Shown here piece after piece: positions 1 to 15,225 of a stretch of 15,325 nt of DNA. The DNA comes from Opitutales bacterium. Its GTDB lineage: Bacteria > Verrucomicrobiota > Verrucomicrobiia > Opitutales > UBA9783. Each line of letters starts with the position of its first letter. Position 1 is the first letter of the stretch. The position numbers were made by a program, and so were the translations under genes. The notes below the pieces were generated by a model. That model did not search any database and was not told where the DNA came from. It saw nothing but the letters and a program-made list of their open reading frames with translations. The DNA lies in the NCBI GenBank assembly GCA_024407725.1, contig JAKSVZ010000017.1, positions 1 to 15,325 of the forward strand. Direction: 5' to 3'.

Positions 1-80
1 AAAACCTACGTGCGTTTAAGATCCTAGATGCGTATCCCCATCGTGATACCTTTGAGGAGTTGGTTGCAGCGGAAATGTAG
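1..80 (+). CDS. 3' end of an unidentified gene (partial; codons start at nt 3). It reads ...NLRAFKILDAYPHRDTFEELVAAEM and stops at TAG 78-80
   Basis: The frame is open from the window edge to TAG at 78-80. A near-identical inverted copy at the other window end reads CAG at this codon and continues QDGK*. The same GAC GGT AAG TAA still follows in frame here. The product is not recognised. Confidence 0.45.
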   Translation, partial: NLRAFKILDAYPHRDTFEELVAAEM

Positions 81-100
81 GACGGTAAGTAAACAACCAT
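1..100. repeat. Left arm of the terminal inverted duplication (pairs with 15226-15325)
   Basis: The reverse complement of 15226-15325 matches 1-100 at 96/100 positions (mismatches at 56, 68, 78, 94). Positions 1-55 are exact. Weaker, gapped similarity continues to about 140. Confidence 0.9.
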
Positions 101-106
101 TAACCT

Positions 107-1228: not shown

Positions 1229-1245
1229 GGATGAACAAAATTACT

Positions 1246-1330
1246 TGGTGCTCGAGAAGGGATTTGAACCCTTACGCCTTGCGGCACCAGATCCTAAGTC
1301 TGACGTGTCTGCCAATTCCACCACTCAAGC
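1246..1330 (-). tRNA. tRNA-Leu, anticodon UAG, class II (long variable arm), with encoded CCA
   Basis: The minus-strand sequence is GCTTGAG-TG-GTGGAATTGGCAGACAC-G-TCAGA-CTTAGGA-TCTGG-TGCCGCAAGGCGT-AAGGG-TTCAAAT-CCCTT-CTCGAGC-ACCA. It has a 7-bp acceptor stem, a 5-bp anticodon stem, the loop CU-UAG-GA, a TTCAAAT T-loop and a long variable arm. Total length is 85 nt. Confidence 0.9.
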
Positions 1331-1463
1331 TTATAGCGTAATTCCATACAAAATGGGATTGTCGAAAAGCGCAACGTATTTTTTTACGCACCCCTCATTT
1401 AAGCAGACAGGTCTAAAACAACTTGACATTGCCCATCAAACTTGTTTTTTCAATTGCAATTGA

Positions 1464-4265
1464 ATGGCGAACGTAGAAAAAAATGCGCTTCTAAAAGCGA
1501 CGCTTAATCTTCCGAAAACGAATTTCCCCATGCAGGCTCGTTTAGTCCAACGAGAACCGGAACGATTGGAGCGATGGAATCAACAGCATTTATACGCACA
1601 AATTCAAAAGAAAAATGCAAGCGGCAAACCCTTTTTGTTGCACGATGGGCCTCCGTTTACCAATGGTGATATTCACATCGGTACCGCACTCAATAAGATT
1701 TTAAAAGATATCATTTTGCGCTTCAAAAGCATGCAAGGGTTTTCGGCTCCCTACATACCCGGTTGGGATTGCCATGGGCTGCCCATAGAACATAAGGTGG
1801 CTAAAGAGCATCCTGAATTGCTGAAAAATCCAATTGAATTGCGCAAAACCTGTGCTGCGTTCTCATCGGACTTCATTAAACGCCAAGAAGCTCAATTTCG
1901 CCGCTTAGGCGTATTGGCTGACTGGGAACACGCCTATCAAACCAAAGAATCAGGGTATGAAGGTCATGTGCTCCATACCTTTGCTCAATTTGTTCGCGCA
2001 GGGCTTGTTTATCGCAGCAAAAAGCCCGTTTATTGGTCGATTCCGTGCCAAACAGCTTTGGCGGAAGCGGAAATTGAGTATAAGAACTTGGTCAGCGATA
2101 GTATTTGGGTAAAATTCCTGCTGAAAAAGCCCGAAGTTTTAGGTTTAAAGGAACAAACCTACGTTGTTATTTGGACTACAACCCCTTGGACTTTGCCAGC
2201 CAACCGAGCCATTGCGGTAGGTCCTGATTTACGCTATGTCTCTCTTCAAGTTGGATCGGAACACTACATTGTTGCGGAAGAATTGGTCGAAACCTTTAAA
2301 AAAGACTGTCATATCGATCAGGCAACGGTTGAGCATGCGTTCACCGGTAGCCAGCTAGAAGGGCAGCTTACTCAGCATCCATTTCTAAACCGCGAAAGTC
2401 CGATTGTATGCGCGGATTACGTCACGTTAGACACCGGAACTGGATGCGTTCATACAGCCCCAGGGCATGGAATGGACGACTACTTAACGGGTTTGCGCTA
2501 TCATTTAGAGATTGCTTGCCCCGTTGACGATCGAGGGGCTCTTATGGCCGAAGGGGATATGCCGGCCGAACTCATTGGTCAATTGGTATGGACTCCCAAA
2601 GGAGATTCGCCTGCAAACCAAGCGGTTATGGAGCTACTCAAGACCAAAAACGCTTTGTTGCAAGCAACCCCCTATCCGCATTCCTATCCGCACTGTTGGC
2701 GTTCAAAAGCCCCAGTTATCGCGCGCGCACTCCCCCAATGGTTTATTGATTTAGGGATGTTAAAGCAAAAAGCGGAACGTGCGATTGACGCTGTGCAGTG
2801 GTTGCCGGCGTGGGGTAAATCGCGCATTAAAGGTTCGGTTTCTGCTAGACCTGATTGGTGCATCAGCCGTCAACGCATGTGGGGAATTCCATTGCCTGCG
2901 TTTTTTAACGAATCCGGTGAAGCCTTGCTGGACGCAGATGTCATTGATGCATTGGCCGATAAAATAGCTCAACGGGGCACCCAATGGTGGTTCGAATCGA
3001 ACGAAGCTACGTTGCTAGAGGGCATAGCGTTACCAACATCTTGGACAGGAACCTTGCATAAAAGCAACGACACTTTGGACGTTTGGATTGATTCTGGATG
3101 TAGTCATGTAGCGGTGCTCCGCCCTAAAGGATGGGAACCGGCCGATTTATATTTTGAAGGAAGCGATCAGCACCGCGGTTGGTTTCAATCTTCTTTGTTA
3201 ACCTCCTTAGTAAGTGGGGATCGTGCTCCGTACAAAACGGTCTTAACCCATGGATTCTTTGTGGATGAGGAACGCAAGAAAATCTCAAAAAGTTCCGGTA
3301 GTCCCCAAACTGCCGAAGCTTACGTATCTAAATACGGAGCCGATATCTTGCGTTTATGGATTGCTTCTGAAGATTATCGCAATGATATTCCGGTATCCGA
3401 CGCTATTCTTCAGCAAGTTATCGCCACTTATCGAACGATTCGCAATACGCTGCGTTTTCAATTGGGCAACCTCTATGATTTCAAACCAAGCGATGCGATT
3501 GCCTACCCCCAATTATTGCCCATCGACCGTTGGGCTTTGGGTGAAACCAATCGCTTGATTGAATCGGTCACTCAAGCGTACGAAGCGTACGATTTCCACA
3601 AGGTATACCAGCAGATCAACCGTTTCTGTACGTTAACCTTGTCGGCTCGTTATCATGATATTTTGAAAGATCGCTTGTACACTCTCAGCGCTGATGGATT
3701 GGAGCGGCGTTCAGCTCAAACGGTTCTGCATACCATTTGCCAAACGCTCATCCAATTACTCGCGCCCATTTTAACGTTTACGGCCGATGAAGCTTGGGGG
3801 TACTTACAAGGAGATGCGGATTTTGGTTATGGCCAACCCGTCCATCTTAGTGATTTCCCCAAAACGAACGCTCAATGGAATGATGAGGCGTTGGATAAGG
3901 ATTTTACGGAATTATTTCAAATACGTGAAAAAGTGCAAATAGAGCTCGAAAAAGCGCGCCAGCAGAAAGCAATTGGGCAATCCTTAGATGCCCAAATCAC
4001 CCTAACGATTGGGGAACAAAGCCCTGAATGGGCTGTGTTAAAGCGCTACGAGTCCTATTTACCCGAATACTGGATTGTATCGGCAGTTCACTTGATGGTG
4101 GGACCCGAATCGGGTTGTTCGATTGCAGTCAAGCATGCAGATGGGGTACAGTGTCCACGCACTTGGCGGTGGGTTAATCAATTAGTTGAGGTAGAAGGTT
4201 TTGGGCCTGTATCGGAACGATGCGTGCCTGTATTGAAATCTTGGCTAAAAACCCATACAATGTAA
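1464..4265 (+). CDS. ileS: Isoleucine--tRNA ligase (bacterial type 1)
   Basis: 933-aa ORF with a HIGH-type motif (PFTNGDIHIGTALNK), a KMSKS-type motif (KKISKSSG), CP1 editing-domain motifs (TTTPWTLPAN) and DWCISRQRMWGIPLP. The C-terminal zinc-peptide region is present but retains only 2 of 4 Cys (CPRTW...SERCV). Confidence 0.97.
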   Translation: MANVEKNALLKATLNLPKTNFPMQARLVQREPERLERWNQQHLYAQIQKKNASGKPFLLHDGPPFTNGDIHIGTALNKILKDIILRFKSMQGFSAPYIPGWDCHGLPIEHKVAKEHPELLKNPIELRKTCAAFSSDFIKRQEAQFRRLGVLADWEHAYQTKESGYEGHVLHTFAQFVRAGLVYRSKKPVYWSIPCQTALAEAEIEYKNLVSDSIWVKFLLKKPEVLGLKEQTYVVIWTTTPWTLPANRAIAVGPDLRYVSLQVGSEHYIVAEELVETFKKDCHIDQATVEHAFTGSQLEGQLTQHPFLNRESPIVCADYVTLDTGTGCVHTAPGHGMDDYLTGLRYHLEIACPVDDRGALMAEGDMPAELIGQLVWTPKGDSPANQAVMELLKTKNALLQATPYPHSYPHCWRSKAPVIARALPQWFIDLGMLKQKAERAIDAVQWLPAWGKSRIKGSVSARPDWCISRQRMWGIPLPAFFNESGEALLDADVIDALADKIAQRGTQWWFESNEATLLEGIALPTSWTGTLHKSNDTLDVWIDSGCSHVAVLRPKGWEPADLYFEGSDQHRGWFQSSLLTSLVSGDRAPYKTVLTHGFFVDEERKKISKSSGSPQTAEAYVSKYGADILRLWIASEDYRNDIPVSDAILQQVIATYRTIRNTLRFQLGNLYDFKPSDAIAYPQLLPIDRWALGETNRLIESVTQAYEAYDFHKVYQQINRFCTLTLSARYHDILKDRLYTLSADGLERRSAQTVLHTICQTLIQLLAPILTFTADEAWGYLQGDADFGYGQPVHLSDFPKTNAQWNDEALDKDFTELFQIREKVQIELEKARQQKAIGQSLDAQITLTIGEQSPEWAVLKRYESYLPEYWIVSAVHLMVGPESGCSIAVKHADGVQCPRTWRWVNQLVEVEGFGPVSERCVPVLKSWLKTHTM

Positions 4266-4272
4266 TTCACAC

Positions 4273-4794
4273 ATGAAGCGAAAGACATCAAAAACCAGCA
4301 AGTCATCGGACAAGGTTGCTGTTACCCCCAAAGTACTTCCTGCTGCGTCGCTAGCAGATATTTTGGGTTTAAGTACCCCCAACCAACCTAAAGCAGAGCA
4401 TAACAAGAACGAAGTGCCTAAAAAGTGGCGCACGTACTATGACCAACTGATCGCGTTAAAGGAGCAGCTGGAACAAACGGGGCATGTAGCTGCAGAAACC
4501 TACGGCTATTCCAATCCGAAAACACTCATTTTTGATATCAATGCAGCGATTGACCGCATTTTTAAAGGGACTTATGGCCTGTGTGAGTTGACGCATAAGC
4601 CCATTAATCCCGAAAGGCTACGCGCAATGCCTTATACTCGGTATTCATCCGAAGGCCAAAAGCAGCTGGATGAAGAAGCGAAGCTACAGGCATTAAAGAA
4701 CCGTAAAGCGGATGAGGACTATGATTCCGACGGTGCTGAAGACGCGCTCAACAAACTGTTGTTGATGGACGATAACAATGGCGCGAACGAATGA
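4273..4794 (+). CDS. DksA/TraR-family protein with a degenerate (Cys-depleted) zinc-finger region
   Basis: 173 aa. AIDRIFKGTYGLCELTHKPINPERLRAMPYTRYSSEGQ matches the TraR/DksA finger scaffold (RI..GTYG.C..CG..I...RL.A.P.A..C..CQ), but only the first Cys is kept. It has a basic Ser/Lys-rich N-terminus and an acidic C-tail. It starts 7 nt after the ileS stop, and its stop overlaps the lspA start (ATGA). Confidence 0.65.
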   Translation: MKRKTSKTSKSSDKVAVTPKVLPAASLADILGLSTPNQPKAEHNKNEVPKKWRTYYDQLIALKEQLEQTGHVAAETYGYSNPKTLIFDINAAIDRIFKGTYGLCELTHKPINPERLRAMPYTRYSSEGQKQLDEEAKLQALKNRKADEDYDSDGAEDALNKLLLMDDNNGANE

Positions 4795-5231
4795 GGGGGC
4801 GTAAACTTTGCTTTTGTGTTGCAGGGGGCGTTGTGCTGCTTGATCAGCTAACGAAGTATCTATGTGCTCATGCTAACCCCTGCCAAGTCCCCGTTATCCC
4901 TCATTGCTTATCCCTAACCTTTGTCGTCAATACCGGAAGTATTTGGGGTTGGGCTGGCGCTTATACCTCTTTATTGGCTTACGCCGGAGTCGCCTTACTC
5001 TTTGTTTTAAGCGCTTATTTTTTAGCAAAACCACCCGCCTATCCTATTTGGATGGGATTGCTCATCGGGGGAGTCTGTGGCAATACCCTAGACCGTTTAT
5101 GCCGCGGGTATGTAATTGATTTCATCGATTGCTATATCAAAAATTGGCATTGGCCGTGCTTTAATATAGCCGATATCGCTATCACCAGCGCCTGTCTCGG
5201 AATGATTCTTTTTCAACCGAAACCTCGCTAA
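4791..5231 (+). CDS. lspA: Lipoprotein signal peptidase (signal peptidase II)
   Basis: 146 aa and polytopic. It carries the LspA motifs LDQLTK, VNTGSIWG, GGVCGNTLDRLCRGYVIDFID and WPCFNIADIAI. ileS-lspA linkage is a classic conserved synteny. Confidence 0.9.
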   Translation: MRGRKLCFCVAGGVVLLDQLTKYLCAHANPCQVPVIPHCLSLTFVVNTGSIWGWAGAYTSLLAYAGVALLFVLSAYFLAKPPAYPIWMGLLIGGVCGNTLDRLCRGYVIDFIDCYIKNWHWPCFNIADIAITSACLGMILFQPKPR

Positions 5232-5237
5232 TGATCC

Positions 5238-6047
5238 TTATTTTTTATCCTCAAATGTATAAAAATCAGGCGTAATGCTGAAGGATTGAATCGACCCAAC
5301 AAGCGGCTGTCGATCGCGCGCAGCAACCATTAAAGAAAGCATCAGGGTTTGATCCATAAAAGGCACTGAATAGGTGTGGATTGTACTATAACCTTGGTAA
5401 AGCTCTGGATGGGTACATAAAACACTCAGTCCGTTTTGTTCAACAAAGGATAACGTTAAATAAATCCGATCATCCCACGACCGTAGTTTTTGCGAACAAA
5501 ACAACGGCTGTTGTTGAGCCAAACGGACATGCTGTTCTTGAATCGCCTTTTCATCTCCCTGCAGGTTTTTATCGTGCGGTGAACCAATCGGAAAAACAAT
5601 GGAAGTTTTTACAACGCTCGGCGTGGGTAATGGTACTGCTGGTCTCGTGGTAGGTAACGTTGTCCTAGGAACCACACTCGTAGCGGGTCGGTTGGTTCTG
5701 GGAACAATTTTCGTGGTAGGTCGTGTTCCCGATGCTACTTGCCTTACGACCGGCGCTACAGGTTGTCCGGTTGTCACCTCTGCTGGCTGTTCAGAAAAGG
5801 TGAATACGCCAGCAATACGATCCTTTAATTCCGATTTGGACGGATGAACCACGTGCGTTCGATGGATAGTCTGGCCTCCAACGATATAGGTGTAATCAAA
5901 CGTTAAGGATGCCAAGCTCCAAAACCAATAAGAATAAGTCTTAATAGGCACCGTTAAATTACAACGTTGGTTAAAGGGGAGAGCCAAGATGCTGGGGCTT
6001 ACCCCCAGCTCATTGACAATCGTACGGAATGAAGGCGCAACAGGCAT
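5238..6047 (-). CDS. Distal tail / putative receptor-binding protein: two globular halves joined by a Pro/Thr/Arg-rich repeat linker
   Basis: 269-aa ORF and the last gene of the operon, starting 3 nt after the upstream stop. The central tract is RPTTKIVPRTN-RPATSVVPRTT-LPTTRPAVPLPTP. The function is inferred from position only. Confidence 0.4.
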   Translation of the reverse strand: MPVAPSFRTIVNELGVSPSILALPFNQRCNLTVPIKTYSYWFWSLASLTFDYTYIVGGQTIHRTHVVHPSKSELKDRIAGVFTFSEQPAEVTTGQPVAPVVRQVASGTRPTTKIVPRTNRPATSVVPRTTLPTTRPAVPLPTPSVVKTSIVFPIGSPHDKNLQGDEKAIQEQHVRLAQQQPLFCSQKLRSWDDRIYLTLSFVEQNGLSVLCTHPELYQGYSTIHTYSVPFMDQTLMLSLMVAARDRQPLVGSIQSFSITPDFYTFEDKK

Positions 6048-6050
6048 AAA

Positions 6051-7739
6051 TCAGCGAGAAGCAATCATCCAGAATTGTTTCAGCTCCCCGTTTTCAACCA
6101 TATTAAACGGTTTTAGGGAAAGCTGCGTGTTTTCAGGCAACTCATTCGCATTAATCATCACCTGCTTTGATTTCGTTCCAATCGTTAACTGCGTATAGCG
6201 CCCCATATCCACCTGAGAATCGGAAATGGGCGACATATGCGGGAAATAGGTTCTATTTCCGGAACTTTGATCGGCAAAGCGTATCTTGGGGTTATCCGTG
6301 ATGGTACGGATTCGGTGCGTATGCATCAACTGACAGATATCGTTAGGTCCTAATTGCTTAGGGGCTCCAAACTTTAAAACGGTCGTTCCGGTATCCAACG
6401 AAATCCGTTCTTCCTGTACGGGTAAACTCAAAGTGCCCCACGCGGGTTCGCCATCTAAAAACGACAAAGCGTGGCCGATAAAAGGTCCCGATAGATCCTC
6501 GTCAATCAAGGTTAATTGTCCCTCATAGCGCAAACACCCTATCGATTGATACAGCGTGGCTGCTAAACCGACCGGAGGCTGCGTTGTTTTGCCCGTAGAA
6601 ATAATGTTTTGATAGATCCTAGATTGCGCATTGGTTGCACAAATTTTTACCGAAAATGGACGTTCGGTATCCATTTCATCGGTTACGTAATGAATACTAG
6701 CGCTGATTGTTTCATAGGTAGCGTCGCAACCCATCCAAGGCGCAATCGCTCCTTCTAGTAACTCATTCGGTAGATTAGACATCCGCTGAACGTTGGAAAT
6801 TTGCATCGATTTTGCATCAACCAAACAAGGAAAGTGCTTTTTCCACCATTCGTCGCTTTCGGGTTGAATCGGTTGCGTCTGTACCCATTGTTCCTGCACA
6901 TGAGCATGCGACCCTTCCAATTCAACTGTCAATACCAACGCATTCAGTTCTTCACCGGTTGCATTTTCGGGATAGCGATCGACCGTAACGCTTTTCCACG
7001 TAGCCCCATCGGCTGAATGCGAATGTTCGTATTTCAGAACAACCGCTGCTATCTTTAAATCATTGCGGGGAATGATGGAAAACTGAGTCAATTGGCGTAG
7101 GGACAACGATTGTTTTTGTAAGGCTGACGCACAAGCAAAATGAATCGTTGGAGTTTTCGTCGTATAATCGATCCAAGCAGTAGCGTTGGGGGTCCAACGT
7201 AATAGCTTTAAAATCGCTTCACTACAACTGCAGTCCTTGATGGTTTCGCAAGGAAACTCGAAATCAAAACCGGCAATAGACCCACAATCAATCGGTGCAT
7301 GATGCGCTTTCGCATAATCAACAATTGCCTGTAGGCACTGACGAGCATTAATCGTATTTCCTTGGTCATCTTGACCCAGCAAACACACACTACGGTTAAT
7401 CACTTCTGTGGTGGTCGCTGTACCATCTTTAAAATAGCGCCAAGGTTGTTGAAAAACCAAATGCTCGAAATACCAAAATGGACCGGACGCTTTGTAATAA
7501 GCGGATTCAGAATCCGCTGTATAATACGTTGGCGTTTGGGTAATACGTCCCCAAAACCATCGAGTGGCATCCTGAAAAATTTCAATGATTGCATCGCATT
7601 CGAACACGGGTGCTGAAGCATCCGTTTGAAAAGTGACCGTATCCGTCCCTTGATTCAGGATGTGGCGCGTAACATTAGAAATACCCCATTCGGACAAAGG
7701 TTTGGTTTGTCCGCGATAAGACAGGGTCCATTGCTTCAT
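6051..7739 (-). CDS. Large tail structural protein (hub / baseplate-like; the N-terminus is reminiscent of the gpD / Mu gp44 style)
   Basis: 562-aa ORF, the largest in the cluster, located after the neck genes. The N-terminal pattern is WTLSYRGQTKPLSEWGISNVTRHILNQGTDTVTFQ...IIEIFQDATRWFWGRIT. The family assignment is a visual impression and is unverified. Confidence 0.35.
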   Translation of the reverse strand: MKQWTLSYRGQTKPLSEWGISNVTRHILNQGTDTVTFQTDASAPVFECDAIIEIFQDATRWFWGRITQTPTYYTADSESAYYKASGPFWYFEHLVFQQPWRYFKDGTATTTEVINRSVCLLGQDDQGNTINARQCLQAIVDYAKAHHAPIDCGSIAGFDFEFPCETIKDCSCSEAILKLLRWTPNATAWIDYTTKTPTIHFACASALQKQSLSLRQLTQFSIIPRNDLKIAAVVLKYEHSHSADGATWKSVTVDRYPENATGEELNALVLTVELEGSHAHVQEQWVQTQPIQPESDEWWKKHFPCLVDAKSMQISNVQRMSNLPNELLEGAIAPWMGCDATYETISASIHYVTDEMDTERPFSVKICATNAQSRIYQNIISTGKTTQPPVGLAATLYQSIGCLRYEGQLTLIDEDLSGPFIGHALSFLDGEPAWGTLSLPVQEERISLDTGTTVLKFGAPKQLGPNDICQLMHTHRIRTITDNPKIRFADQSSGNRTYFPHMSPISDSQVDMGRYTQLTIGTKSKQVMINANELPENTQLSLKPFNMVENGELKQFWMIASR

Positions 7740-7741
7740 GA

Positions 7742-7861
7742 TTAATGACGAGTATTGTTGATTTGTTCACGCAACTCCTCTATCTGACCCGCTAAATCAG
7801 CAAGTTGGTTTTCGTGCTCTTTGATCGCATCTAATAATTCATAATAATCATTTTGTTTCAT
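7742..7861 (-). CDS. 39-aa coiled-coil micro-protein (MKQNDYYELLDAIKEHENQLADLAGQIEELREQINNTRH)
   Basis: The internal ATG at 7861-7859 lies 7 nt after a perfect GGAGGA (complement of 7869-7874). The 66-aa version in the ORF track would overlap the upstream gene by 95 nt. The sequence is heptad-like. Its stop lies 2 nt before the 562-aa gene. Confidence 0.5.
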   Translation of the reverse strand: MKQNDYYELLDAIKEHENQLADLAGQIEELREQINNTRH

Positions 7862-8249
7862 GTAGATTTCCTCCGTAAATTTTATAAAGGGTATAAGAAG
7901 CGTTCCCTTTCGAATGCGTTTGAATCGTGCATAGGGTAGCATCTTCTAAAAGAGTGGTTTGTTTGGCACTCGGGTCTTCAAAATCAATCGACAGTTGACC
8001 TTTGGCATGGATCAACTGACTGGCATGCGTTAGGCTGTATTGAATCGCTTCTGCTTTACTTGCGTGACGCTTGCTAACCTCCAAAACAATTTCTGTCTGT
8101 TGATTATCCCGTCCTAACGCTTTAGCAAAGTCCGCATGGATCGCCTTACGCCATTGAACCGTCCAGTGAGCCGTTATCTCTAAGCGCGTAATGGCTTCGT
8201 TGGTCTTTTCTCCGCCCGACAAAACATGGCTATTTAGGGTAATTTTCAT
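7848..8249 (-). CDS. Neck / tail-proximal structural protein of unknown family
   Basis: 133-aa ORF. Its start forms an ATGA overlap with the upstream gene. Its position lies between the head-completion genes and the tail genes. Confidence 0.4.
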   Translation of the reverse strand: MKITLNSHVLSGGEKTNEAITRLEITAHWTVQWRKAIHADFAKALGRDNQQTEIVLEVSKRHASKAEAIQYSLTHASQLIHAKGQLSIDFEDPSAKQTTLLEDATLCTIQTHSKGNASYTLYKIYGGNLHETK

Positions 8250-8698
8250 AAGGCAACTTCAAAATTGGTCGCTTCAAAATTCACCTGAAGCGCATTTTTC
8301 CTATCAACCGTTAACCATTCCCATGGGGCGTTTTCAGCTAATCTAAACTTGCCTGTCCATAGGTTTTTGACCGTTAACGTAGCCCCTGCAAGCGCAAAAC
8401 TCACCTGTTCGGCATAATCGACAAAATTGCTTTTATCGGCAGTTGTAATCGATTGCAACAAGGTGCATTTTAACGCTAAGGTGTCCCAGCAAGGGGCTAC
8501 CAATTCAGGCAGGGTTTTTAACGGGAACGGTAGGTCGACAAACAATACATACGGTGCTGCTTGTACCAAGCGCCTTTGAGTCCGTTTGTTGAGCAAAAAA
8601 TTATCATTTGCAACAATCTTGGCTGTCGCCTTTAAGTCCGGTTGTTTTTGGAAAAAGCTAACAACCTCTGATTGAATAGCTCGCAAAACAGGCTTCAT
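8246..8698 (-). CDS. Head-closure / tail-completion-like protein (DUF3168 / Mu gp37 style)
   Basis: 150 aa. The N-terminus (LRAIQSEVVSFFQKQPDLKATAKIV...AAPYVLFV) resembles the pattern of tail-completion families. There are ATGA overlaps on both sides. Confidence 0.4.
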   Translation of the reverse strand: MKPVLRAIQSEVVSFFQKQPDLKATAKIVANDNFLLNKRTQRRLVQAAPYVLFVDLPFPLKTLPELVAPCWDTLALKCTLLQSITTADKSNFVDYAEQVSFALAGATLTVKNLWTGKFRLAENAPWEWLTVDRKNALQVNFEATNFEVAL

Positions 8699-9120
8699 AA
8701 TCCTTTTAAGGTTGATTGCTTCACGTCATGCTCTCGGTGATCAACGGCTTCTATACGCGGTTCCCACTGCTTATCGTGGGTATTCCATTCCGTAAACAAT
8801 GCATCTAATGTTTTGCGTGCTTGTTCTGCCGCACGGATTTGGTCTTCCGATGCCATAAGCTCAGGCATTCGGGTTTGCAAAGCTTCAATCACCAAATGGC
8901 AAGCAGCTTGCTTACAGGCATCCGGAAGATGATTGGCTTTGACCGGATTAGGCAACCAAGCACTGGGAATCCGTTGTCGTATATAAGCACATACATCGGC
9001 AATAATACCCTGCAAAACCGTTCCTTTGGGATTAAGGGCGCTGAGTTGCTCTTCAATCAGATAATCCGATAGGTCTTTGGGTTCTAATAGAATCCACTGT
9101 AAGGTAATAGGCTGTATCAT
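8695..9120 (-). CDS. Head-tail connector / adaptor (DUF1320 / gp6-like style)
   Basis: 141 aa and the first gene after the capsid gene. Its helical pattern (DLSDYLIEEQLSAL...LQGIIADVCAYIRQRIP...ACHLVIEALQ) is typical of head-tail adaptors. Confidence 0.5.
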   Translation of the reverse strand: MIQPITLQWILLEPKDLSDYLIEEQLSALNPKGTVLQGIIADVCAYIRQRIPSAWLPNPVKANHLPDACKQAACHLVIEALQTRMPELMASEDQIRAAEQARKTLDALFTEWNTHDKQWEPRIEAVDHREHDVKQSTLKGL

Positions 9121-9133
9121 AAAAATGGGTTCG

Positions 9134-9156
9134 ACGGGATGGCGTTACCATCCCGT
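9134..9156 (-). promoter_or_regulatory. Stem-loop directly downstream of the capsid gene (partial terminator or mRNA stabiliser)
   Basis: ACGGGATGG (9134-9142) and CCATCCCGT (9148-9156) form a perfect 9-bp stem with a 5-nt loop. It sits in the largest intergenic gap of the operon (49 nt). On the minus strand a TTTTT run follows 8 nt later, just before the next ATG. Confidence 0.5.
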
Positions 9157-9169
9157 TACGCTAATGGGT

Positions 9170-10069
9170 TTAGGCGTCTTTAATTTTCCAATGAATGAGG
9201 TTTGTTTTCGAAGTCACTGCAATCGTCGAGAAGCACTCAACAATGATATCGGTATACTTAGGATATTCTTCTACATATACGCGGAAGAAGTGACCTTCGG
9301 GTGACAACGTGACAAAGTACTTCAAGTTGGATAAAGCATCCTTAAACATAGAATCTTCGGCGTAAAAAGCGAAAACGCTATTGTCTTTCAGTTGCCCTTG
9401 AATACCGAGGTTGTTTTGCTTTAAGAGCTGAACCGCATCCACACGTAACATTTCTGCTAATGTTTCACGGCTCATTTCCGCTGCAATGCGTGCACCGGCA
9501 TTCTCTTGTGCGGCATAACAATCCTGTCGGATAAACCAAGCGGGTTCAGAGTAGAGCAAGCGATTGGGATAAAATCCATGCTTCTTGCAAGCCGCAACTA
9601 ACGCTTTACGGATATCTGCATCCGGAGAAGCATCGTTCGCCCAAGTTAAGTCTCCGCCATCAGCAGCATTGGCAATCAAGGCTTTGATCACGCGACGCAA
9701 CTCGTTGCGATAGATTTGTTCTTGAAGGGCATAAACATAGCGGGTTTGCCAATCATTTCCATTGATATCATCGACATCAATGCGGATTCCTAATCCCTTA
9801 TTTAGGGTTTTTGCGGTTATAGATTCACCTTGGAAATCCATGTATTTAAAATTGCTGCCGGTTGCGCGGATATCATCATCCTCAGAGCTGAAAAACTGAT
9901 CGGTTGGTGCCTTTTTGTGCTCAAAGCGGCGTGCAACCGGAATTGCAGGAGCAATGAAGTTTAAGGTTTTCTTTAAATCCAAATGGTTGTCCTTACTGTT
10001 TGCAAATTCAGTAAGTTCCACCGACAGATGGTTCGTGTTATAAGGTAGGTCGTTTACTATTGTAGTCAT
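9170..10069 (-). CDS. Major capsid protein (HK97 fold expected; lambda gpE / Mu gpT-like by size and position)
   Basis: 299 aa, immediately after the protease/scaffold and decoration-like genes (lambda-like order C/Nu3-D-E), and followed by a stem-loop. The segment FIAPAIPVARRFEHKK...FKYMDFQGESITAKTL is reminiscent of E-like capsid proteins. Confidence 0.65.
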   Translation of the reverse strand: MTTIVNDLPYNTNHLSVELTEFANSKDNHLDLKKTLNFIAPAIPVARRFEHKKAPTDQFFSSEDDDIRATGSNFKYMDFQGESITAKTLNKGLGIRIDVDDINGNDWQTRYVYALQEQIYRNELRRVIKALIANAADGGDLTWANDASPDADIRKALVAACKKHGFYPNRLLYSEPAWFIRQDCYAAQENAGARIAAEMSRETLAEMLRVDAVQLLKQNNLGIQGQLKDNSVFAFYAEDSMFKDALSNLKYFVTLSPEGHFFRVYVEEYPKYTDIIVECFSTIAVTSKTNLIHWKIKDA

Positions 10070-10077
10070 ATCAATTA

Positions 10078-10506
10078 TTACTTAAGTATGTTTTGAGGAA
10101 GCGTCGTTAAGGTTTCAACAAGGGATCCTTTGGTTCCATCGGTTAACGCAATACCAATGAAAGGCATTTCTTTGGTAAGTTTTTTAGCCTTGCCGTTATC
10201 TGCTAAACCCAAGGGTTCTTCAGCTTTAATGGCTTCATGGACTAAAATGCGTGCACTTTGATCGGTGCAGCTTAAAGGCTGAATGGAGATGTGAGCATCC
10301 TGACCCTCTGTTGGCGTTGCATCGCGTAATGCTATACCGAATGGATATTCGGCTTTTCCGCATGCCTTAACATAACTTTGGCTTTCGTCAAAGGTGACCA
10401 GCATGCCTTTTGTGATAGGATTTCCCTTCACGCTTAACGTAAAGGATCCTCTGTGATAGCTAAATGTATTCTCATTTGCCATAATAATAGTGTGTAGTTG
10501 TTTCAT
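10078..10506 (-). CDS. Head decoration / cement-like protein (DUF2190 style)
   Basis: 142 aa, or 134 aa if it starts at MANENTF (10482). It looks beta-rich, with a repeated G(I/V)AL motif (FGIALRDA, IGIALTDGTKG). It sits directly upstream of the capsid gene. Confidence 0.45.
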   Translation of the reverse strand: MKQLHTIIMANENTFSYHRGSFTLSVKGNPITKGMLVTFDESQSYVKACGKAEYPFGIALRDATPTEGQDAHISIQPLSCTDQSARILVHEAIKAEEPLGLADNGKAKKLTKEMPFIGIALTDGTKGSLVETLTTLPQNILK

Positions 10507-10524
10507 AAAATTAATATCTATAGG

Positions 10525-11385
10525 TTAAAATTGTTCTTCGTCTCGTTGAACCGCGCTCCAAGCTTCTGGATAGTTTTCGCCGGTTTGTTTCATACGTAAC
10601 TGAACCTTTTGCGAAAAATCCAAAATGCGCTTCTTGTCGCTGCGGCTTTGCTGTTTGTGCAAATTATGCGAATGCGCTTTGTGCTTCGATTTTGGCTTAG
10701 CAACCGCCTTGTTTTTGGCTGCCTTTACCACCTGCTTCTTCGCAACCGGTTTCTTAACAACAGGAGCGCTTTGGGGAGCAGCATCCGGCGTTACCTGAAA
10801 TAGCCACTGATAGCCTTTGCGTATCTGCTGCCACATCCAAAGGAACCAATGACAGCAACCTTTCATCAGAGCGCATATCCAGCAATGCGTGGATTTGGCT
10901 TTTTGTTGCTTCAACACCCGTAACTTTTTCAAACACTCCTGTGCTTCATCGAACGGAATAGGTTCGACCGGTAAATTCGGTTGTTGGGTAAGTCCGACCG
11001 ACAATAGGTTGATGGGATGGAAGGTTGATTGATGCGCACCCTTGATCAAAACCCAACGGGGCGATAAATGGGTATAAACGCGATTGGCAATCAGTTCATA
11101 ACTGCAGCGATTCCATTTGATTTTTACAAACAAACCATCTTTGTTAACGGCGATGCGTCGCACAAACCCATAAACTTTATGCGGTACCGGATGCGCCGGA
11201 TTGTTGAACAAAGGATCATCGGGATGACCAATGTACACCGGAATTTTATCGCAGCGTAAGCGTAATTTCAGGCGCTTGCTTTTGGATGCACAACGCTTGG
11301 CATCCGCCATTTCTATTGTTTGTTTCCCATAAGGATGGTTGAACGTACCATAAGGAGATAATTGTATCCAATTTTTCATAAACAT
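10525..11385 (-). CDS. Prohead protease / scaffold fusion (Mu-like prophage I protein style)
   Basis: 286 aa. The N-terminus (WIQLSPYGTFNHPYG...IPVYIGHPDD...GLTQQPNLP) resembles the Mu gpI family. The C-terminus (ILDFSQKVQLRMKQTGENYPEAWSAVQRDEEQF) looks scaffold-like. It starts 1 nt after the portal stop. The middle contains an odd W/C-rich patch and a Lys/Ala/Pro basic tract. Confidence 0.6.
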   Translation of the reverse strand: MFMKNWIQLSPYGTFNHPYGKQTIEMADAKRCASKSKRLKLRLRCDKIPVYIGHPDDPLFNNPAHPVPHKVYGFVRRIAVNKDGLFVKIKWNRCSYELIANRVYTHLSPRWVLIKGAHQSTFHPINLLSVGLTQQPNLPVEPIPFDEAQECLKKLRVLKQQKAKSTHCWICALMKGCCHWFLWMWQQIRKGYQWLFQVTPDAAPQSAPVVKKPVAKKQVVKAAKNKAVAKPKSKHKAHSHNLHKQQSRSDKKRILDFSQKVQLRMKQTGENYPEAWSAVQRDEEQF

Positions 11386-11386
11386 T

Positions 11387-12628
11387 TTATTTTTGAAGAC
11401 TTTCCTCAGACTCCGCTACCGGATGAACGCCCCACTTTTGCAGGGTGTCTTTGACGTCTAGAGGTGGATTAATTCCAAAATGTTCACGGATATCGTTAAC
11501 GCTGAGCGATACTCCCATATCGTAAAGCGTTTTGATAATGGCCAAATCGTTATTTAGGTTCTTGTTGGATGACGATTTGAGCCGGAAATACGCTTTCGGT
11601 TGCTTAATGCCTTCAAGGCGCAACAATACTTCACGATCCACTTGTTCATTCAGGGTCTCTGAAATCCTTTGTGCATCTTCTTCTTCCAAGATATTGTTTT
11701 CGTTGCGTTGAAGGGTAACGCCGGTAGGGTTTTCCTTGCTCGAATTGATTAAGCGGGTACCCAACCATGTCAGATACATAAGGTCGTCTATACGTTTGAC
11801 GAATTCTGGGTAAGGCAATACTCCTTTGCCGGAAATATCAATGGCCTGAATATCCGTTCCGTGCGACATCACCGCACAAAATTCAGCACTAAAATTTTTT
11901 ACCGCATCGCACGCCATATCCCATTCCTTAGAACCGGGACGCGCTTGTGTAACACCCTTCACGCCAGGCATACCATTGCGTTCGCAATAGATGAGCCAAT
12001 CGCGCAACGAGAGGTGTTTAAATAGATAGGCAATGGAGCTGGATTCCATCAATCCATCGCCCGTGGTTACTAACCATTCACCAGACGTAGTTGGAACCTT
12101 TTTGTGGGTTTCGGGATCTACAAACTGTAAACGACCCCCTTCGTTTTCGAAGAAAAACAGCGGTACAAAGCGAAATTCTGCGGTTAATAACGCGGTGTTG
12201 TCTTGCTTGAACGGCTTGAACACCACTTCATGCACCGCATATCGTTTACCAACCGCATCCATCATCTGATGAATGAGCAACGATAAACCGCCATGCTCAT
12301 TTTCATCGAAAGCATTCACGCAACTCAGGTTGTTATAAAACTGCTCCAAAATGGCCTTTTGACGCATGGCCTCGTCGGAACTATCAAGGGTTAGAATTTC
12401 CCAATCGAGACGCGCAATGGACTTTTTACGTTTAGAAATAGCCCCCTGTAATACATCATCCCGTTGCTCAATCGCATCCCAAATCATGGCTGCCTGCTTC
12501 AAGTGCCCAGCATGAAAATCGTCTAAAATTTTAGAAAGCGATTGGGGAGTAAGGGAACGAATAGGGTTCCAGCTTTGCGCACTAAAGCGCTCCGTTCGGA
12601 TAGAAGTGGTATAAATGTTTGTTTGCAT
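11387..12628 (-). CDS. Portal protein (Mu gp29 / DUF935-like)
   Basis: The start is reassigned to the ATG at 12628 (MQTNIYTT...), 5 nt after the TerL stop. The track's upstream start at 12754 would overlap TerL by 121 nt. The product is 413 aa. The motif block HLKQAAMIWDAIEQRDDVLQGAISKRKKSIARLDWEIL resembles the DUF935 family. Confidence 0.75.
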   Translation of the reverse strand: MQTNIYTTSIRTERFSAQSWNPIRSLTPQSLSKILDDFHAGHLKQAAMIWDAIEQRDDVLQGAISKRKKSIARLDWEILTLDSSDEAMRQKAILEQFYNNLSCVNAFDENEHGGLSLLIHQMMDAVGKRYAVHEVVFKPFKQDNTALLTAEFRFVPLFFFENEGGRLQFVDPETHKKVPTTSGEWLVTTGDGLMESSSIAYLFKHLSLRDWLIYCERNGMPGVKGVTQARPGSKEWDMACDAVKNFSAEFCAVMSHGTDIQAIDISGKGVLPYPEFVKRIDDLMYLTWLGTRLINSSKENPTGVTLQRNENNILEEEDAQRISETLNEQVDREVLLRLEGIKQPKAYFRLKSSSNKNLNNDLAIIKTLYDMGVSLSVNDIREHFGINPPLDVKDTLQKWGVHPVAESEESLQK

Positions 12629-12633
12629 AAAAA

Positions 12634-13980
12634 CTAGAAGGTTAAGCGTTGAATTTGCATAGGGCCTGAAAAGGAGGGGTGCGAAAACGTTTCGGCTGCA
12701 CAGAAACCGGTCGATACTGCTTGATTCGCATGAATAGCTAAAGCCAATCCCCAAAAACGATCCGCATGCCCATTGGGTCCGTGTTTGGCGGTTAAACGAC
12801 CCTGTTCGTCAATTTGCATGCTCAGTAAGTCCGTTACCAATTCTTCATCAGACGATAAACGCACCATTTGACGATCTACCTGCGCTTTTAAGGCGTAGGC
12901 CAATTGCTCCTTGGTGTTTTGGGTAAATTGAATCCCTTCGATTCGATCGTCTCCAAAACGCTTTTGTGCGCGCTCTAAAAACTGCCGCCCCATGCCTGTT
13001 TGATCCACACAAACGCGTTGTACATTAAAGCGGTGGAACAATTGGTCGAAGACCGATTCTTGTTGATCGAACGGCGCATCTTTTAAGCATTGAATGTGGC
13101 GTAGATAAAACACCTCGTTAATTTGTTCTAAAATTACAAAGGTGCTTAAGTCATTGGTTCGCGCCAAATCGACGCCCATGAGCATAACGCCATCGGAAGT
13201 TTGCCGCCAATCCTCAGCATCCGAATAGAAACACTTTTGAATCGCCTCGTAGGATAACAGTGAATCCGAATGATCCATGGGCTGACACATGTATTCCTGC
13301 AAAAAGCTTTTTTCGGTCGCACAGGATTGTTTAATAAAATTGTAATAATCACCGGCATCCATTGTTTGACGGGGATCGTCCGGCGGTAATTTGGCTTTTA
13401 ACTTTTCTAAAAATCCTTGGTCTAAAGCATCCACCAAGGTCACCCGATGCAGCGAAATTTGTTTGGGATTCCCTTCGTTACGAGCTTCCTCTATTAAACG
13501 ATTGAAGAAGTTATGAGCTCCGCGATGGGTTGAAATAATCTCCAATTGCCCACCCCAGGTAATTCCGGGATAAGCAATGTTGTACAGAGCCTCCGGATCT
13601 TCATGGAGCGCAAATTCATCAAGAATACGCGATCCTCGCTTGCCTGCCTGCGCATTAACTGCCGACGAAATCAGGGTTAACGTACTTCCATTGCGCAAAC
13701 GTAACACCGTACGCAAATTCGAAGCACGCCCCAACAGACGTTCGTGATACGCTTGATTTAAAATAGCCGCAAAGGATTTGCAGTCGTTCAAAAACAGCTG
13801 TGCTTGCTGCAAATCACGCGAACAAATCCAAACGTGGGTGTTCGCATGGGTTATAGCCTTACGCAACGCCCGATAAGCCGTTGCCCAAGATAAACCAATC
13901 TGCCTCGATTTCTCCATTACCTTAATCCGGGAAGAATCTTGTATCCACTTCGCTTGATAAGGTAAGAAGAACGTCTTCAT
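12634..13980 (-). CDS. Terminase large subunit
   Basis: 448 aa. It has the N-terminal LPYQAKWIQDSSRIKVMEKSRQIGLS with a deviant Walker A, KSRQIGLS (compare lambda gpA KSARVGYS and T4 gp17 SRQLGKT). Walker B is SRILDEF. RNaseH-like nuclease Asp blocks are present (LMGVDLARTNDLS, VCVDQTGMG, HADRFWGLALA). Confidence 0.85.
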   Translation of the reverse strand: MKTFFLPYQAKWIQDSSRIKVMEKSRQIGLSWATAYRALRKAITHANTHVWICSRDLQQAQLFLNDCKSFAAILNQAYHERLLGRASNLRTVLRLRNGSTLTLISSAVNAQAGKRGSRILDEFALHEDPEALYNIAYPGITWGGQLEIISTHRGAHNFFNRLIEEARNEGNPKQISLHRVTLVDALDQGFLEKLKAKLPPDDPRQTMDAGDYYNFIKQSCATEKSFLQEYMCQPMDHSDSLLSYEAIQKCFYSDAEDWRQTSDGVMLMGVDLARTNDLSTFVILEQINEVFYLRHIQCLKDAPFDQQESVFDQLFHRFNVQRVCVDQTGMGRQFLERAQKRFGDDRIEGIQFTQNTKEQLAYALKAQVDRQMVRLSSDEELVTDLLSMQIDEQGRLTAKHGPNGHADRFWGLALAIHANQAVSTGFCAAETFSHPSFSGPMQIQRLTF

Positions 13981-14300
13981 AGCAGGTTTAACTGATCCTC
14001 CAAACTGCTAAGCATTTCTTCCGACAAATCAGATTCCGCTTGCGCACTGTTCACTTTGCTACAAACCGCAAATAACTCTCGGTAGTTGTGCAGGAGCTTC
14101 GTTAACACTCCCACAATTTCTTTGGTTGTACTAAAATTGGCCGATTTAGCATCCACGCATAATTGGTCAAATAAACGCTCCCAAAGCATCCCCATCGATT
14201 GCTCAGCAACATGCATTTGCTCTAATAAGGATGCAGCGTTTTTAGCCCGCTTAATACGGTCTAAATGCTCGTTAAATTCTACTGGGGTCGCGCTTTTCAT
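13977..14300 (-). CDS. Small helical protein; candidate small terminase or packaging accessory (by position only)
   Basis: 107-aa ORF. Its stop overlaps the TerL start (ATGA). Its start overlaps the upstream wHTH gene by 29 nt. No recognisable motif was found. Confidence 0.35.
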   Translation of the reverse strand: MKSATPVEFNEHLDRIKRAKNAASLLEQMHVAEQSMGMLWERLFDQLCVDAKSANFSTTKEIVGVLTKLLHNYRELFAVCSKVNSAQAESDLSEEMLSSLEDQLNLL

Positions 14301-14547
14301 TTTCTAAAAAATCAATGCCTTGAGCGGATATTTTGTATCGGTATGCTTGCGGACAAATATCATTGCTTAGCCGCAGCACAAATCCCTTGTCTTGCAAATA
14401 AGCTAGTTCCTTTTCCAACAAGCGCCTGTTTGCCGGCAATCCGTGCAAAAATACACCTTGCTTGAGCGTTTCAATCGGTAACGATACCGGATAGGCTGAC
14501 TCTAACTGTAACAGGAGGGTCCTACGTACAAATTCATTTATTTTCAT
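14272..14547 (-). CDS. Winged-helix DNA-binding protein (possible DNA-recognition partner of the terminase, or a regulator)
   Basis: 91 aa. It has a wHTH-like layout: helices (RRTLLLQLESAYP / LPIETLKQGVFLHG / NRRLLEKELAYLQDKGFV) followed by a beta wing (LRLSNDICPQAYRYKISAQG). AAGGGA lies 4 nt upstream of the ATG. Confidence 0.45.
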   Translation of the reverse strand: MKINEFVRRTLLLQLESAYPVSLPIETLKQGVFLHGLPANRRLLEKELAYLQDKGFVLRLSNDICPQAYRYKISAQGIDFLENEKRDPSRI

Positions 14548-14555
14548 AAAATCCC

Positions 14556-15020
14556 TTAACGTTTAAAGTCCACCAACGTATATCCAAAATAGAGCCCCAT
14601 AATGGCTGACAGAAGGTGCGTGTCGAGCGGGGTAATTACAACTCCGTGCAGTTGAATCCAAGTCAGGTTTTCAACCCCAGAACAAAAGCTAAATAATTTG
14701 CGCGTTGTTTTTGTAATCCCAATCGTAATGGGAATGTTGGGACAAAAAACAGCTACTAGCTTCGGCCATACAATTACAAAAAATACAGCCGATAAGGCGA
14801 TGATGCGTCGCACTAACTGTAAACTGGACGTCATACGCGCGCGATTAACCATCGCTGCTTGAACGTTCGAACGCCGCAAGGTTAAGACACGTTCATAGTG
14901 ACGTGCCATAAATATAAAACTTATCAGGCGCATACTGCTCCCGATCATGGATGAACCCAACAGCGCATATAGCTCAGATGGGATAGGGTTAGCGAACATG
15001 TTTTGTGTCATTTCCGCCAT
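14556..15020 (-). CDS. Small integral membrane protein (about 3 TM segments); a holin-like role is speculative
   Basis: 154-aa ORF and the first gene of the operon. Hydrophobic segments lie at about aa 17-39, 69-92 and 126-147, separated by Arg-rich loops. No family was recognised. Confidence 0.4.
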   Translation of the reverse strand: MAEMTQNMFANPIPSELYALLGSSMIGSSMRLISFIFMARHYERVLTLRRSNVQAAMVNRARMTSSLQLVRRIIALSAVFFVIVWPKLVAVFCPNIPITIGITKTTRKLFSFCSGVENLTWIQLHGVVITPLDTHLLSAIMGLYFGYTLVDFKR

Positions 15021-15110
15021 TATATAGATATTTGTATTACCCTTAATGATTAAATGTGATATAATATATAAATTTTTTTAAATTTAACTAAAAAGACTAT
15101 TTGGTGCTAA
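15021..15110. promoter_or_regulatory. AT-rich upstream region of the phage-like operon. It contains a perfect extended -10 (TGATATAAT, 15057-15065), but on the + strand
   Basis: The region is about 80-85% A+T by eye and lies directly upstream of the first operon ATG (15020). The minus strand offers only weak -10/-35 candidates (TATATT / TATTAT). The plus strand has TG-n-TATAAT with a weak -35 (TTACCC, 17-nt spacer). Confidence 0.3.
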
Positions 15111-15170
15111 ATGGTTTTTGGGGGTACAGTAAAATCAGCAGAAACGCCCACACAAACCACTTGTTGTGCG

Positions 15171-15202
15171 AACAAAAACAAAAAAGCCCCAACAATGGGG
15201 CT
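15171..15202 (-). terminator. Rho-independent terminator of the right-hand flanking gene
   Basis: The minus strand reads AGCCCCA-TTGT-TGGGGCT (7-bp stem, positions 15185-15191 and 15196-15202) followed by TTTTTGTTTTTGTT. It lies 31 nt downstream of the flanking gene's TAA. Confidence 0.75.
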
Positions 15203-15225
15203 AAACTAACAAAATAGAAGCGTTG

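Follow-up and report, generated by a model that had tools for sequence, protein, structure and literature searches.

A phage-derived cassette of 14 genes occupies about 9.8 kb of contig JAKSVZ010000017.1 of an Opitutales bacterium (GenBank assembly GCA_024407725.1; positions 1 to 15,325, forward strand; the whole stretch of 15,325 nucleotides [nt] is referred to below as the window). We read this cassette as encoding a vertically inherited, domesticated particle akin to a gene transfer agent (GTA), with a drastically shortened tail tip of the sipho/myophage type, and we give this reading a probability of roughly 55%. The genes, here called g1 to g14, form one tightly packed operon on the minus strand, running from 15020 down to 5238. 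The original prediction, made from the letters of the window, had described the last four open reading frames (ORFs) as a reduced phage tail module. Those tail genes are real and conserved, but the framing was incomplete, since the cluster to which they belong is a chromosomal cassette that appears to be inherited vertically. The four tail genes are as follows.

7848..8249, minus strand: g11, 133 amino acids (aa), with a predicted tail-tube/Hcp/Dit fold (AlphaFold2 [AF2] model and Foldseek)
7742..7861, minus strand: g12, 39 aa, coiled-coil peptide (own Shine-Dalgarno sequence, C-terminal motif, synteny)
6051..7739, minus strand: g13, 562 aa, predicted trimeric hub or central spike of the gp27/Mu gp44/gpD/VgrG/Tal type (AF2 and Foldseek)
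5238..6047, minus strand: g14, 269 aa, candidate receptor-binding or hub-attached protein (position, divergence, and immunoglobulin [Ig]-bearing positional counterparts)

The 14-gene region is a chromosomal cassette and not a phage genome; in the window, lspA-dksA-ileS flanks it. Housekeeping genes form its edges directly, on contigs of up to 700 kb: lspA-dksA-ileS lies on one side in six genomes, and the neighbors on the opposite side are dnaA, lepA, a gene for an outer-membrane protein, accB/accC, ligA, ahpC, or an aminotransferase gene together with a TLC transporter gene. Within the roughly 10 kb of flank inspected per metagenome-assembled genome (MAG), the cassette and its surroundings contained no integrase, repressor, replication gene, or endolysin that we could find, and neither edge had att or flanking direct repeats or a tRNA gene. 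One 31-nt imperfect repeat was considered as an att site and rejected, as it spans beyond lspA-dksA and is probably due to chance. In all long contigs, the structural genes form a chromosomal cluster free of genes for integration, replication, or lysogeny control, as is characteristic of GTAs. This setting bears on the possibility that the window holds part of a small autonomous temperate podovirus whose nonstructural genes lie outside it. Related head modules are indeed listed as viral contigs in IMG/VR; however, core bacterial genes occupy both flanks of the cassette in every long contig, and the cassette is collinear with the chromosome of a sister genome (91% nt identity) and co-diverges with IleS. 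We consider such a phage highly improbable.

We scanned one genome per GTDB species for the cassette. The hub gene g13 was found in 24 MAGs, all from Verrucomicrobiota of the Opitutales or Puniceicoccales; their sources are the rumen, the gut of humans and animals, and the termite gut. Wherever a locus spans the complete cassette, the 14 genes are intact and in identical order, and the window is collinear with the sister genome, Verrucomicrobia bacterium UBA3869 (locus L005). In ten pairwise comparisons, the ratio of nonsynonymous to synonymous substitution rates (dN/dS) was 0.03 to 0.3 for nearly all cassette genes and reached 0.44 for g14, and dS of the cassette was of the same size as in the neighboring ileS and lspA genes. 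Because the four tail ORFs are syntenic in about 20 diverged loci, have dN/dS values of 0.03 to 0.44, and include a 39-aa ORF that is kept in every locus with the g12-hub junction, they are real genes and not chance ORFs. Six genomes have the g14-lspA junction in common, with IleS identities of 71 to 95%; across these, the pairwise identities of the large terminase (TerL), the portal, the major capsid protein (MCP), g11, and g13 tracked those of IleS (r = 0.97 to 0.99) and gave the same grouping. Only the upstream flank varies within this group, while the link between cassette and lspA is kept, which suggests rearrangement rather than mobility. Vertical inheritance and purifying selection across a clade, the hallmark of GTAs, were thus seen in the lspA-linked group, and these patterns argue for long vertical residence of the cassette under selection.

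These data also speak to whether the cassette is what is left, inert and nonfunctional, of a defective prophage after deletion of its tail genes. Viral relatives with much larger tail modules (see below) are in keeping with such a loss, and any function of the cassette is deduced from its genes. Nevertheless, a neutral remnant would have decayed by the time IleS identity had fallen to 71 to 73%, whereas 14 of 14 genes are intact in every whole-cassette locus and are tightly joined, dN/dS stays well under 1 (the 39-aa ORF included), and dS matches that of host genes in size. We give an inert remnant very little credence.

The layout of the tail genes is as originally described, with ORFs of 133, 39, 562, and 269 aa and tight junctions: the start of g11 overlaps the upstream 150-aa gene g10 by 4 nt, g12 overlaps g11 by 14 nt, a 2-nt gap separates g12 from the hub ATG of g13, and a 3-nt gap separates g13 from g14. 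The claim that this module has no tube did not survive structural modeling. The AF2 model of g11 (12 homologues; predicted local distance difference test score [pLDDT], 78) has a beta-sandwich, a single helix, and a long hairpin that is disordered. Its top 50 Foldseek matches in the PDB are all tube, Dit, terminator, or Hcp proteins (E, 7 × 10−3 to 0.1; probability mostly 0.6 to 1.0), among them the Dit proteins of 80alpha and Douge, T5 p142, the tube of the antifeeding prophage (AFP), Hcp, the tubes of Pam3 and lambda, and the tube and neck chains of the GTA of Rhodobacter capsulatus (RcGTA). The tail tube protein of Halogranum tailed virus 1 ranks first in BFVD (E, 4 × 10−4), ahead of Dit-type, TP901-1 major-tail, and tail-completion proteins. 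Homologues of g11, 135 to 160 aa long, are found in viral tail modules, and dN/dS of the gene is 0.06 to 0.27. Pfam and PHROG gave no usable match to g11, and the PDB profile search gave nothing significant. We conclude that g11 models as a tube-fold protein, with its subclass (tube, Dit, or tail completion) left undistinguished. The related premise of a hub without a tube falls away as well, at the level of folds.

In agreement with the original description of the 562-aa protein as hub-like (gpD or Mu gp44 style), the AF2 model of g13 (20 homologues; pLDDT, 78; predicted template modeling score [pTM], 0.66) yielded 43 top Foldseek matches in the PDB that are all hub or central-spike proteins (E, 7 × 10−12 to 3 × 10−4; probability 1.0 except for one match at 0.95). 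These include the spikes of extracellular contractile injection systems (eCIS), AFP, and Photorhabdus virulence cassettes (PVC); Mu gp44; the MuSo2 43-kDa protein; the R2 pyocin hub; and VgrG; as well as the Tal proteins of the siphophages 80alpha, Bxb1, and Douge. On this model, g13 is predicted with confidence to be a tail hub of the gp27/Mu gp44/VgrG type, and the gene is strongly constrained (dN/dS, 0.04 to 0.10). A word-indexed search with g13 returned no more than 26 clusters, each of metagenome or MAG origin. When 1.84 billion proteins were searched with a hub profile, 2,639 clusters (at 50% identity) were recovered, and E was ≤ 1 × 10−30 for 1,360 of these; the g13-type hub family is therefore large and widespread. 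The two members that were scanned (g13 of the window and the hub of viral contig L029) had no Pfam or PHROG match, and the 26 close homologues carry no recorded Pfam domain. Profile searches of the PDB with g10, g11, g13, g14, and the viral protein v11 (see below) gave only a nonsignificant match to PhiKZ gp98, and among 50,697 phage records, tblastn with g13 picked up no more than a weak, partial match to an Akkermansia phage.

Between the tube-fold gene and the hub gene, the position of the tape measure in long-tail operons, the cassette holds only g12. No long helical tape measure, no −1 frameshift chaperone pair, and no sheath-sized ORF was found in the operon, as originally stated; the absence of a G/GT-style −1 pair also follows from g12 itself, since its frame is +1 with respect to g11 and it is served by a GGAGG ribosome-binding site of its own. 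We considered g12 as a G/GT-like frameshift extension of g11 and rejected this on the same two grounds, together with an overlap that varies from 11 to 20 nt. A g12 ORF of 31 to 50 aa is present in every locus with the g12-hub junction, including the head-less group-F loci. Its C-terminal motif, L.EL.EQ[IL].N.R[HN], has the 3-4 spacing of hydrophobic residues typical of a coiled coil, and dN/dS is 0.03 to 0.13.

Proteins at the corresponding position in relatives are longer. In the IMG/VR contig L029, a 440-aa protein with the C terminus ...IESLQARIAQQESRFANLRNK precedes the hub homologue (30% identity). Ala, Gln, and Arg are abundant in this helical protein, which also has a hydrophobic segment, in the manner of a tape measure. 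A protein of at least 422 aa in L047 has the same character (C terminus ...LEEATRLLEQQIKNANR), and both it and the L029 protein end in a motif similar to that of g12. In L043, the protein before the hub is a coiled coil (at least 165 aa, highly charged; C terminus ...ISRIDQLASQIKNNRSS), and the protein at the g12 position in L033 has 126 aa. A hidden Markov model (HMM) of g12 matched the C terminus of the L043 protein at 17.4 bits (E, 3 × 10−6), compared to a best nonfamily score of 6.7 bits in the 843-protein database, which we took as the noise ceiling. The C termini of the L029 and L033 proteins scored 6.2 to 6.3 bits, which is suggestive but below this ceiling and not significant; in each, the C-terminal window was the best of its protein and beat 489/500 (L029) and 498/500 (L033) shuffles. 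Two further candidates for tape measures, of 809 aa in L033 and 865 aa in L029, were rejected, their composition (rich in Gly, Ala, Ser, and Thr) being fiber-like. From these comparisons we infer that g12 may be the retained, vestigial C-terminal hub-docking module of a tape measure. The helix of a tape measure sets the length of the tail tube, and an alpha-helix of about 30 to 40 residues spans about 5 to 6 nm, or at most about one tube ring. A g12 helix of this length would therefore specify no more than about one ring, giving a stub that looks like that of a podovirus. Such a short stub is the best supported of the three scenarios that had been proposed (a short stub built from unfamiliar parts, a capsid that docks onto something encoded elsewhere, and a tail-less capsid), but its parts are familiar at fold level. 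Given the tube-fold ring, the hub, and the apparent C-terminal stump of a tape measure, it would be a truncated sipho/myophage-type tip and not a tail of the P22, T7, or phi29 type.

The last gene, g14, directly follows the hub gene in every case. It has conserved N- and C-terminal blocks and a variable middle, with a Pro/Thr-rich linker in this genome that carries a 16-aa indel relative to the sister genome, and it is the fastest-evolving gene of the cassette (dN/dS, 0.13 to 0.44). Pfam, PHROG, and PDB profile searches gave no family match for g14. Genes of relatives at the same position encode Ig-like domains (He_PIG in L047 and a GBS104-like Ig domain in L043). We propose that g14 is a receptor-binding protein, which its pattern of conservation would fit.

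What the cassette has lost can be gauged from its viral relatives. Twelve IMG/VR contigs encode a portal, TerL, protease, MCP, and adaptor with 23 to 45% identity to those of the cassette. Their tail modules (12 contigs, with L029/L046 and L044) run in the order v8, v11, g11 homologue, fibers or a beta-helix tailspike, a tape-measure-like or short protein, and hub, where v8 is a 240-aa protein with an Fn3_assoc/CHB_HEX_C domain and v11 has about 315 aa. The v9, v10, and v11 genes and all fibers of these relatives are missing from the Opitutales cassette, whose protein at the tape-measure position has only 39 aa. The larger tail modules, with their fibers and tailspikes, offer a picture of what the cassette appears to have shed. 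The v8-v11 pair precedes the g11 homologue wherever the region is present (viral and metagenome contigs L029/L046, L031, L033, L038, L039, and L044). The position of v11 is that of a major tail or sheath protein; as a candidate for either, it gave no family or PDB match.

The relatives and some termite-gut genomes also bear on whether the particle is split among loci, with the cassette supplying heads and the tail core, and with fibers, lysis genes, and perhaps more tail parts encoded elsewhere in the genome, like the accessory loci of RcGTA. In that case, the tail would be more complex than its four genes imply. In termite-gut Puniceicoccales MAGs (L025 to L028; for example, L027 8041-12301), we observed stand-alone tail-tip units (the group-F loci) with no head genes nearby, each consisting of a 608-aa fiber-like protein, a 37- to 39-aa g12-like peptide, a g13-like hub (32 to 34% identity), and a 184-aa g14-like protein; L026 has neighboring host genes, c78 to c81, in common with the full cassette locus of L014. 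These units may be remnants or separate tail-tip loci, and because they hold hubs without adjacent heads, they indicate that tail-tip units can sit apart from heads. In viral relatives, moreover, large fibers and a beta-helix tailspike are encoded after the tube-fold gene and before the hub gene, and our flank inspection covered 10 kb only. However, no fiber-type gene adjoins any of the approximately 20 full cassettes. We regard a split particle as possible though unlikely, and it is compatible with a GTA-like particle rather than exclusive of it. More generally, it is still conceivable that the capsid docks onto tails, or acquires extra fibers, encoded elsewhere.

A different role for a second locus would apply if the cassette were a satellite, similar to capsid-forming phage-inducible chromosomal islands (cf-PICI), that hijacks the tails of a helper phage and uses g11 to g14 only as a docking interface. 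Like a cf-PICI, the cassette is small, compact, and dominated by head genes, with its own terminase, portal, protease, capsid, and connectors and hardly any tail genes, and its flanks differ between lineages. In contrast to a cf-PICI, it has its own hub, and a hub or spike normally ends a tail rather than docking to one; it is not mobile on the timescale examined, with a stable chromosomal junction and dS equal to that of flanking genes across species with about 72% IleS identity. No integrase, excisionase, replication or regulatory gene, att repeat, or site-specific integration was found in or beside the cassette. Because it lacks an integrase and a replication module and has its own hub, we do not take it for a cf-PICI, and we give a satellite of this kind little credence.

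As in known GTAs (RcGTA, BaGTA, VSH-1, and Dd1), a chromosomal head-tail operon without detectable genes for replication, integration, or lysis enzymes is inherited vertically under purifying selection across a clade. The tail tip of RcGTA likewise contains tube-fold and gp27-like hub proteins. Besides a tail tube, RcGTA has chaperones, a tape measure, Dit, a hub, and a megatron protein; the cassette differs from it in holding a 39-aa peptide at the tape-measure position, in its Mu-type head, in its host phylum, and in the lack of any sequence relationship. Homology to the g1 to g15 head-tail genes of the RcGTA-like family was not found beyond the fold-level resemblance of the tube-fold protein g11, and because its heads are Mu-type, the cassette is not a member of that family.

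Compared to the tail-tip core of siphophages and myophages, the cassette has the same folds in the same order (tube-fold protein, tape-measure position, hub, receptor-binder position), with the tube-fold protein and the gp27/Tal/gpD-type hub both present. It differs in having no long tape measure, G/GT chaperone pair, sheath, or baseplate wedges, and a polymeric tube is not expected. The tails of podoviruses (P22 gp4/gp10/gp26/gp9; T7 gp11/gp12/gp17; phi29 gp11/gp9/gp12) resemble the expected product in being short, noncontractile stubs of four or five proteins. However, none of the 100 listed PDB fold matches of g11 and g13 is a nozzle, knob, or tail needle protein; the listed matches belong to components of long tails, eCIS, and type VI secretion systems. 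On these grounds, the cassette does not encode a classical podoviral tail set. A match to a well-described set of this kind (P22, T7, or phi29), which the original prediction had named as evidence against itself, was found neither in Pfam or PHROG nor among the folds of g11 and g13. Finally, Mu-like phages (Mu, D3112, and the B3/JBD group) have the portal and protease families in common with the cassette, and the hub fold matches Mu gp44, but the cassette lacks a transposase, a gpF-like protein, a sheath, a tube polymer, and a tape measure, and its portal is only about 23% identical to theirs.

The head, packaging, and neck genes that precede the tail genes in the operon are listed here.

14556..15020, minus strand: g1, 154 aa, first cassette gene, with several hydrophobic segments (only match, PHROG 38283, function unknown)
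14272..14547, minus strand: g2, 91 aa, syntenic in all loci (PHROG 3983/436, function unknown)
13977..14300, minus strand: g3, 107 aa, helical, directly upstream of TerL (synteny)
12634..13980, minus strand: TerL, 448 aa (Pfam Terminase_6N and Terminase_6C; PHROG 2, E, 5 × 10−32)
11387..12754, minus strand: Mu-type portal (Pfam Portal_Mu, PF06074; E, 1 × 10−50)
10525..11385, minus strand: Mu gpI-like prohead protease with a basic, scaffold-like C-terminal extension (Mu-like_Pro, E, 1.5 × 10−9, above the gathering score; PHROG 328)
10078..10506, minus strand: g7, 142 aa, scaffold- or decoration-like head protein (PHROG 673, head scaffolding, E, 7 × 10−10; weak Pfam Phage_cement_2)
9170..10069, minus strand: MCP, 299 aa (weak Pfam Phage_capsid_4; PHROG 1005, major head protein)
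8695..9120, minus strand: g9, 141 aa, head-tail adaptor, Ad1/gp6-like (weak matches: Phage_connect_1, E, 0.004; PHROG 477, Ad1, E, 0.003)
8246..8698, minus strand: g10, 150 aa, neck protein (conserved)

The Portal_Mu portal and the Mu gpI-type protease identify the head module as Mu-like. The ~23% identity of the portal is to portals of D3112/JBD-type phages. The listed portal ORF begins with TTG and overlaps TerL by 121 nt, and its homologues align from residue ~37 to 62 on; a likelier start is the ATG at 12628, which is residue 43 of the ORF and follows the TerL stop by 5 nt. The MCP is 31 to 38% identical to those of the IMG/VR relatives, in which homologues of g9 also come after the MCP gene. 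At the 5′ end of the operon, g1 is 50 to 58% identical in all complete loci (dN/dS, 0.03 to 0.15) and is possibly a holin-like or membrane protein, while g3, for which Pfam and PHROG gave no match, lies in what we take as the small-terminase position. The position of g10 suggests head closure or tail completion; sequence and profile searches of Pfam, PHROG, and the PDB gave no match, and its equation with viral v8 was unsupported (hhalign probability, 1.5%, with resemblance only over 25 N-terminal residues). Within the overall 91% nt identity between the window and UBA3869, two regions drop to 74 to 87%: 9300 to 10800, comprising MCP, g7, and the C-terminal part of the protease, and 5401 to 5700, the g14 linker. 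In this pair, the dS of MCP is 0.80 compared to ~0.2 to 0.3 elsewhere, and its amino acid identity is 83% compared to ~96%. The surface-exposed parts of the capsid and of g14 are either recombining or diversifying.

Because the cassette shows no detectable genes for integrase, replication, or lysis enzymes and co-diverges with its host, the particle is most plausibly a GTA-like vehicle for host DNA. Assembly could proceed as follows. Terminase and portal would fill a Mu-type head of the HK97 fold, which the Ad1-type adaptor g9 and then the neck protein g10 would close. A single hexameric ring of g11 would dock onto the trimeric g13 hub-spike, which would shut the channel, and a three-helix bundle of g12 would plug the lumen of ring and hub. 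Binding of the cell surface by g14 on the hub, followed by opening of the hub, would release g12 and the DNA. RcGTA delivery reaches the periplasm only; here too, delivery may be to the periplasm only, since no look-alikes of podoviral ejection proteins were detected in the operon.

Several observations weigh against a GTA-like particle with a shortened tail tip. The flanks differ outside the lspA-linked group, which could reflect past mobility. The conserved genes v9, v10, v8, and v11, which lie between the adaptor and the tube-fold gene in the relatives, are lacking, and the cassette might therefore not build a functional tail alone. Fibers, lysis genes, and other tail parts may lie beyond the ~10-kb flanks, as the group-F loci illustrate. 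With respect to individual proteins, the Foldseek E values of g11 are weak (7 × 10−3 in the PDB, 4 × 10−4 in BFVD) and fit a tube, Dit, or tail-completion protein alike; the g11 and g13 models come from shallow alignments (12 and 20 sequences) with pLDDT of ~78; and g10 and g14 have no assignable fold. The link between g12 and tape measures is a short coiled-coil motif with one match clearly above noise, and the C-terminal scores of the L029 and L033 proteins were also reached by 11/500 and 2/500 shuffles, respectively. Lastly, the particle and its DNA cargo are deduced from genes.

Beyond the g14 end of the cassette, the window contains the following features.

4791-5231, plus strand: lspA, adjoining the g14 end
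4273-4794, plus strand: dksA/traR-type gene, cassette flank
1464-4265, plus strand: ileS, cassette flank
1246-1330, minus strand: tRNA-Leu(TAG), its position kept in L005 to L007
107-1228, minus strand: glycosyltransferase gene

An 88-aa ORF with a TTG start at 1197-1463 (plus strand), between the glycosyltransferase gene and ileS, overlaps the tRNA-Leu(TAG) on the opposite strand and is probably not a gene. At the other end, a strong terminator-like hairpin lies at 15185-15202 (minus strand; AGCCCCA...TGGGGCT and then a run of T), ~165 nt before g1. It presumably terminates the gene that precedes the cassette, whose separate transcription unit would begin from this point. In UBA3869, dnaA (L005 12-884, cut by the contig end) lies ~1.8 kb upstream of the cassette, so a position near the origin of replication is possible for the cassette in this lineage. 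In one gut MAG of the Opitutales, a TLC-type ATP/ADP transporter gene (L013 1406-2914, minus strand; Pfam TLC, E, 4 × 10−151) is directly upstream of the cassette and hints at an energy-parasitic or host-cell-associated lifestyle of some carriers. Toxin-antitoxin genes (YoeB, PIN, zeta toxin) adjoin the cassette in some genomes (L001 13376-13904 and 17696-18305; L021 1953-2780).

Our full-text literature search turned up neither a GTA from Opitutales or Verrucomicrobia nor an account of this cassette. We advance, tentatively and with clearly less assurance than for the GTA-like reading as a whole, that the cassette encodes the first GTA of Verrucomicrobiota, a product of independent domestication in which the tape measure has shrunk to a hub-docking helix of 31 to 50 residues, the tail comprises a single tube ring and a hub, and DNA is probably delivered to the periplasm. 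If this is correct, a Mu-head-derived phage would have been domesticated independently into a GTA-like particle, in a host phylum and a gut and rumen habitat for which we found no described counterpart. The cassette also draws attention to a very large family of g13-type hubs and to their companion tail genes, none of which had a Pfam or PHROG match in these searches. The cassette would also be a natural end point of tail shortening, in which ring, tape-measure stump, and hub are kept by selection while tube polymer, chaperones, sheath, and fibers are gone, and thus a natural demonstration of the tape-measure ruler at its limit. It opens to experiment the question of how small a part of a long tail is enough for a capsid to be closed and then opened on a cell.

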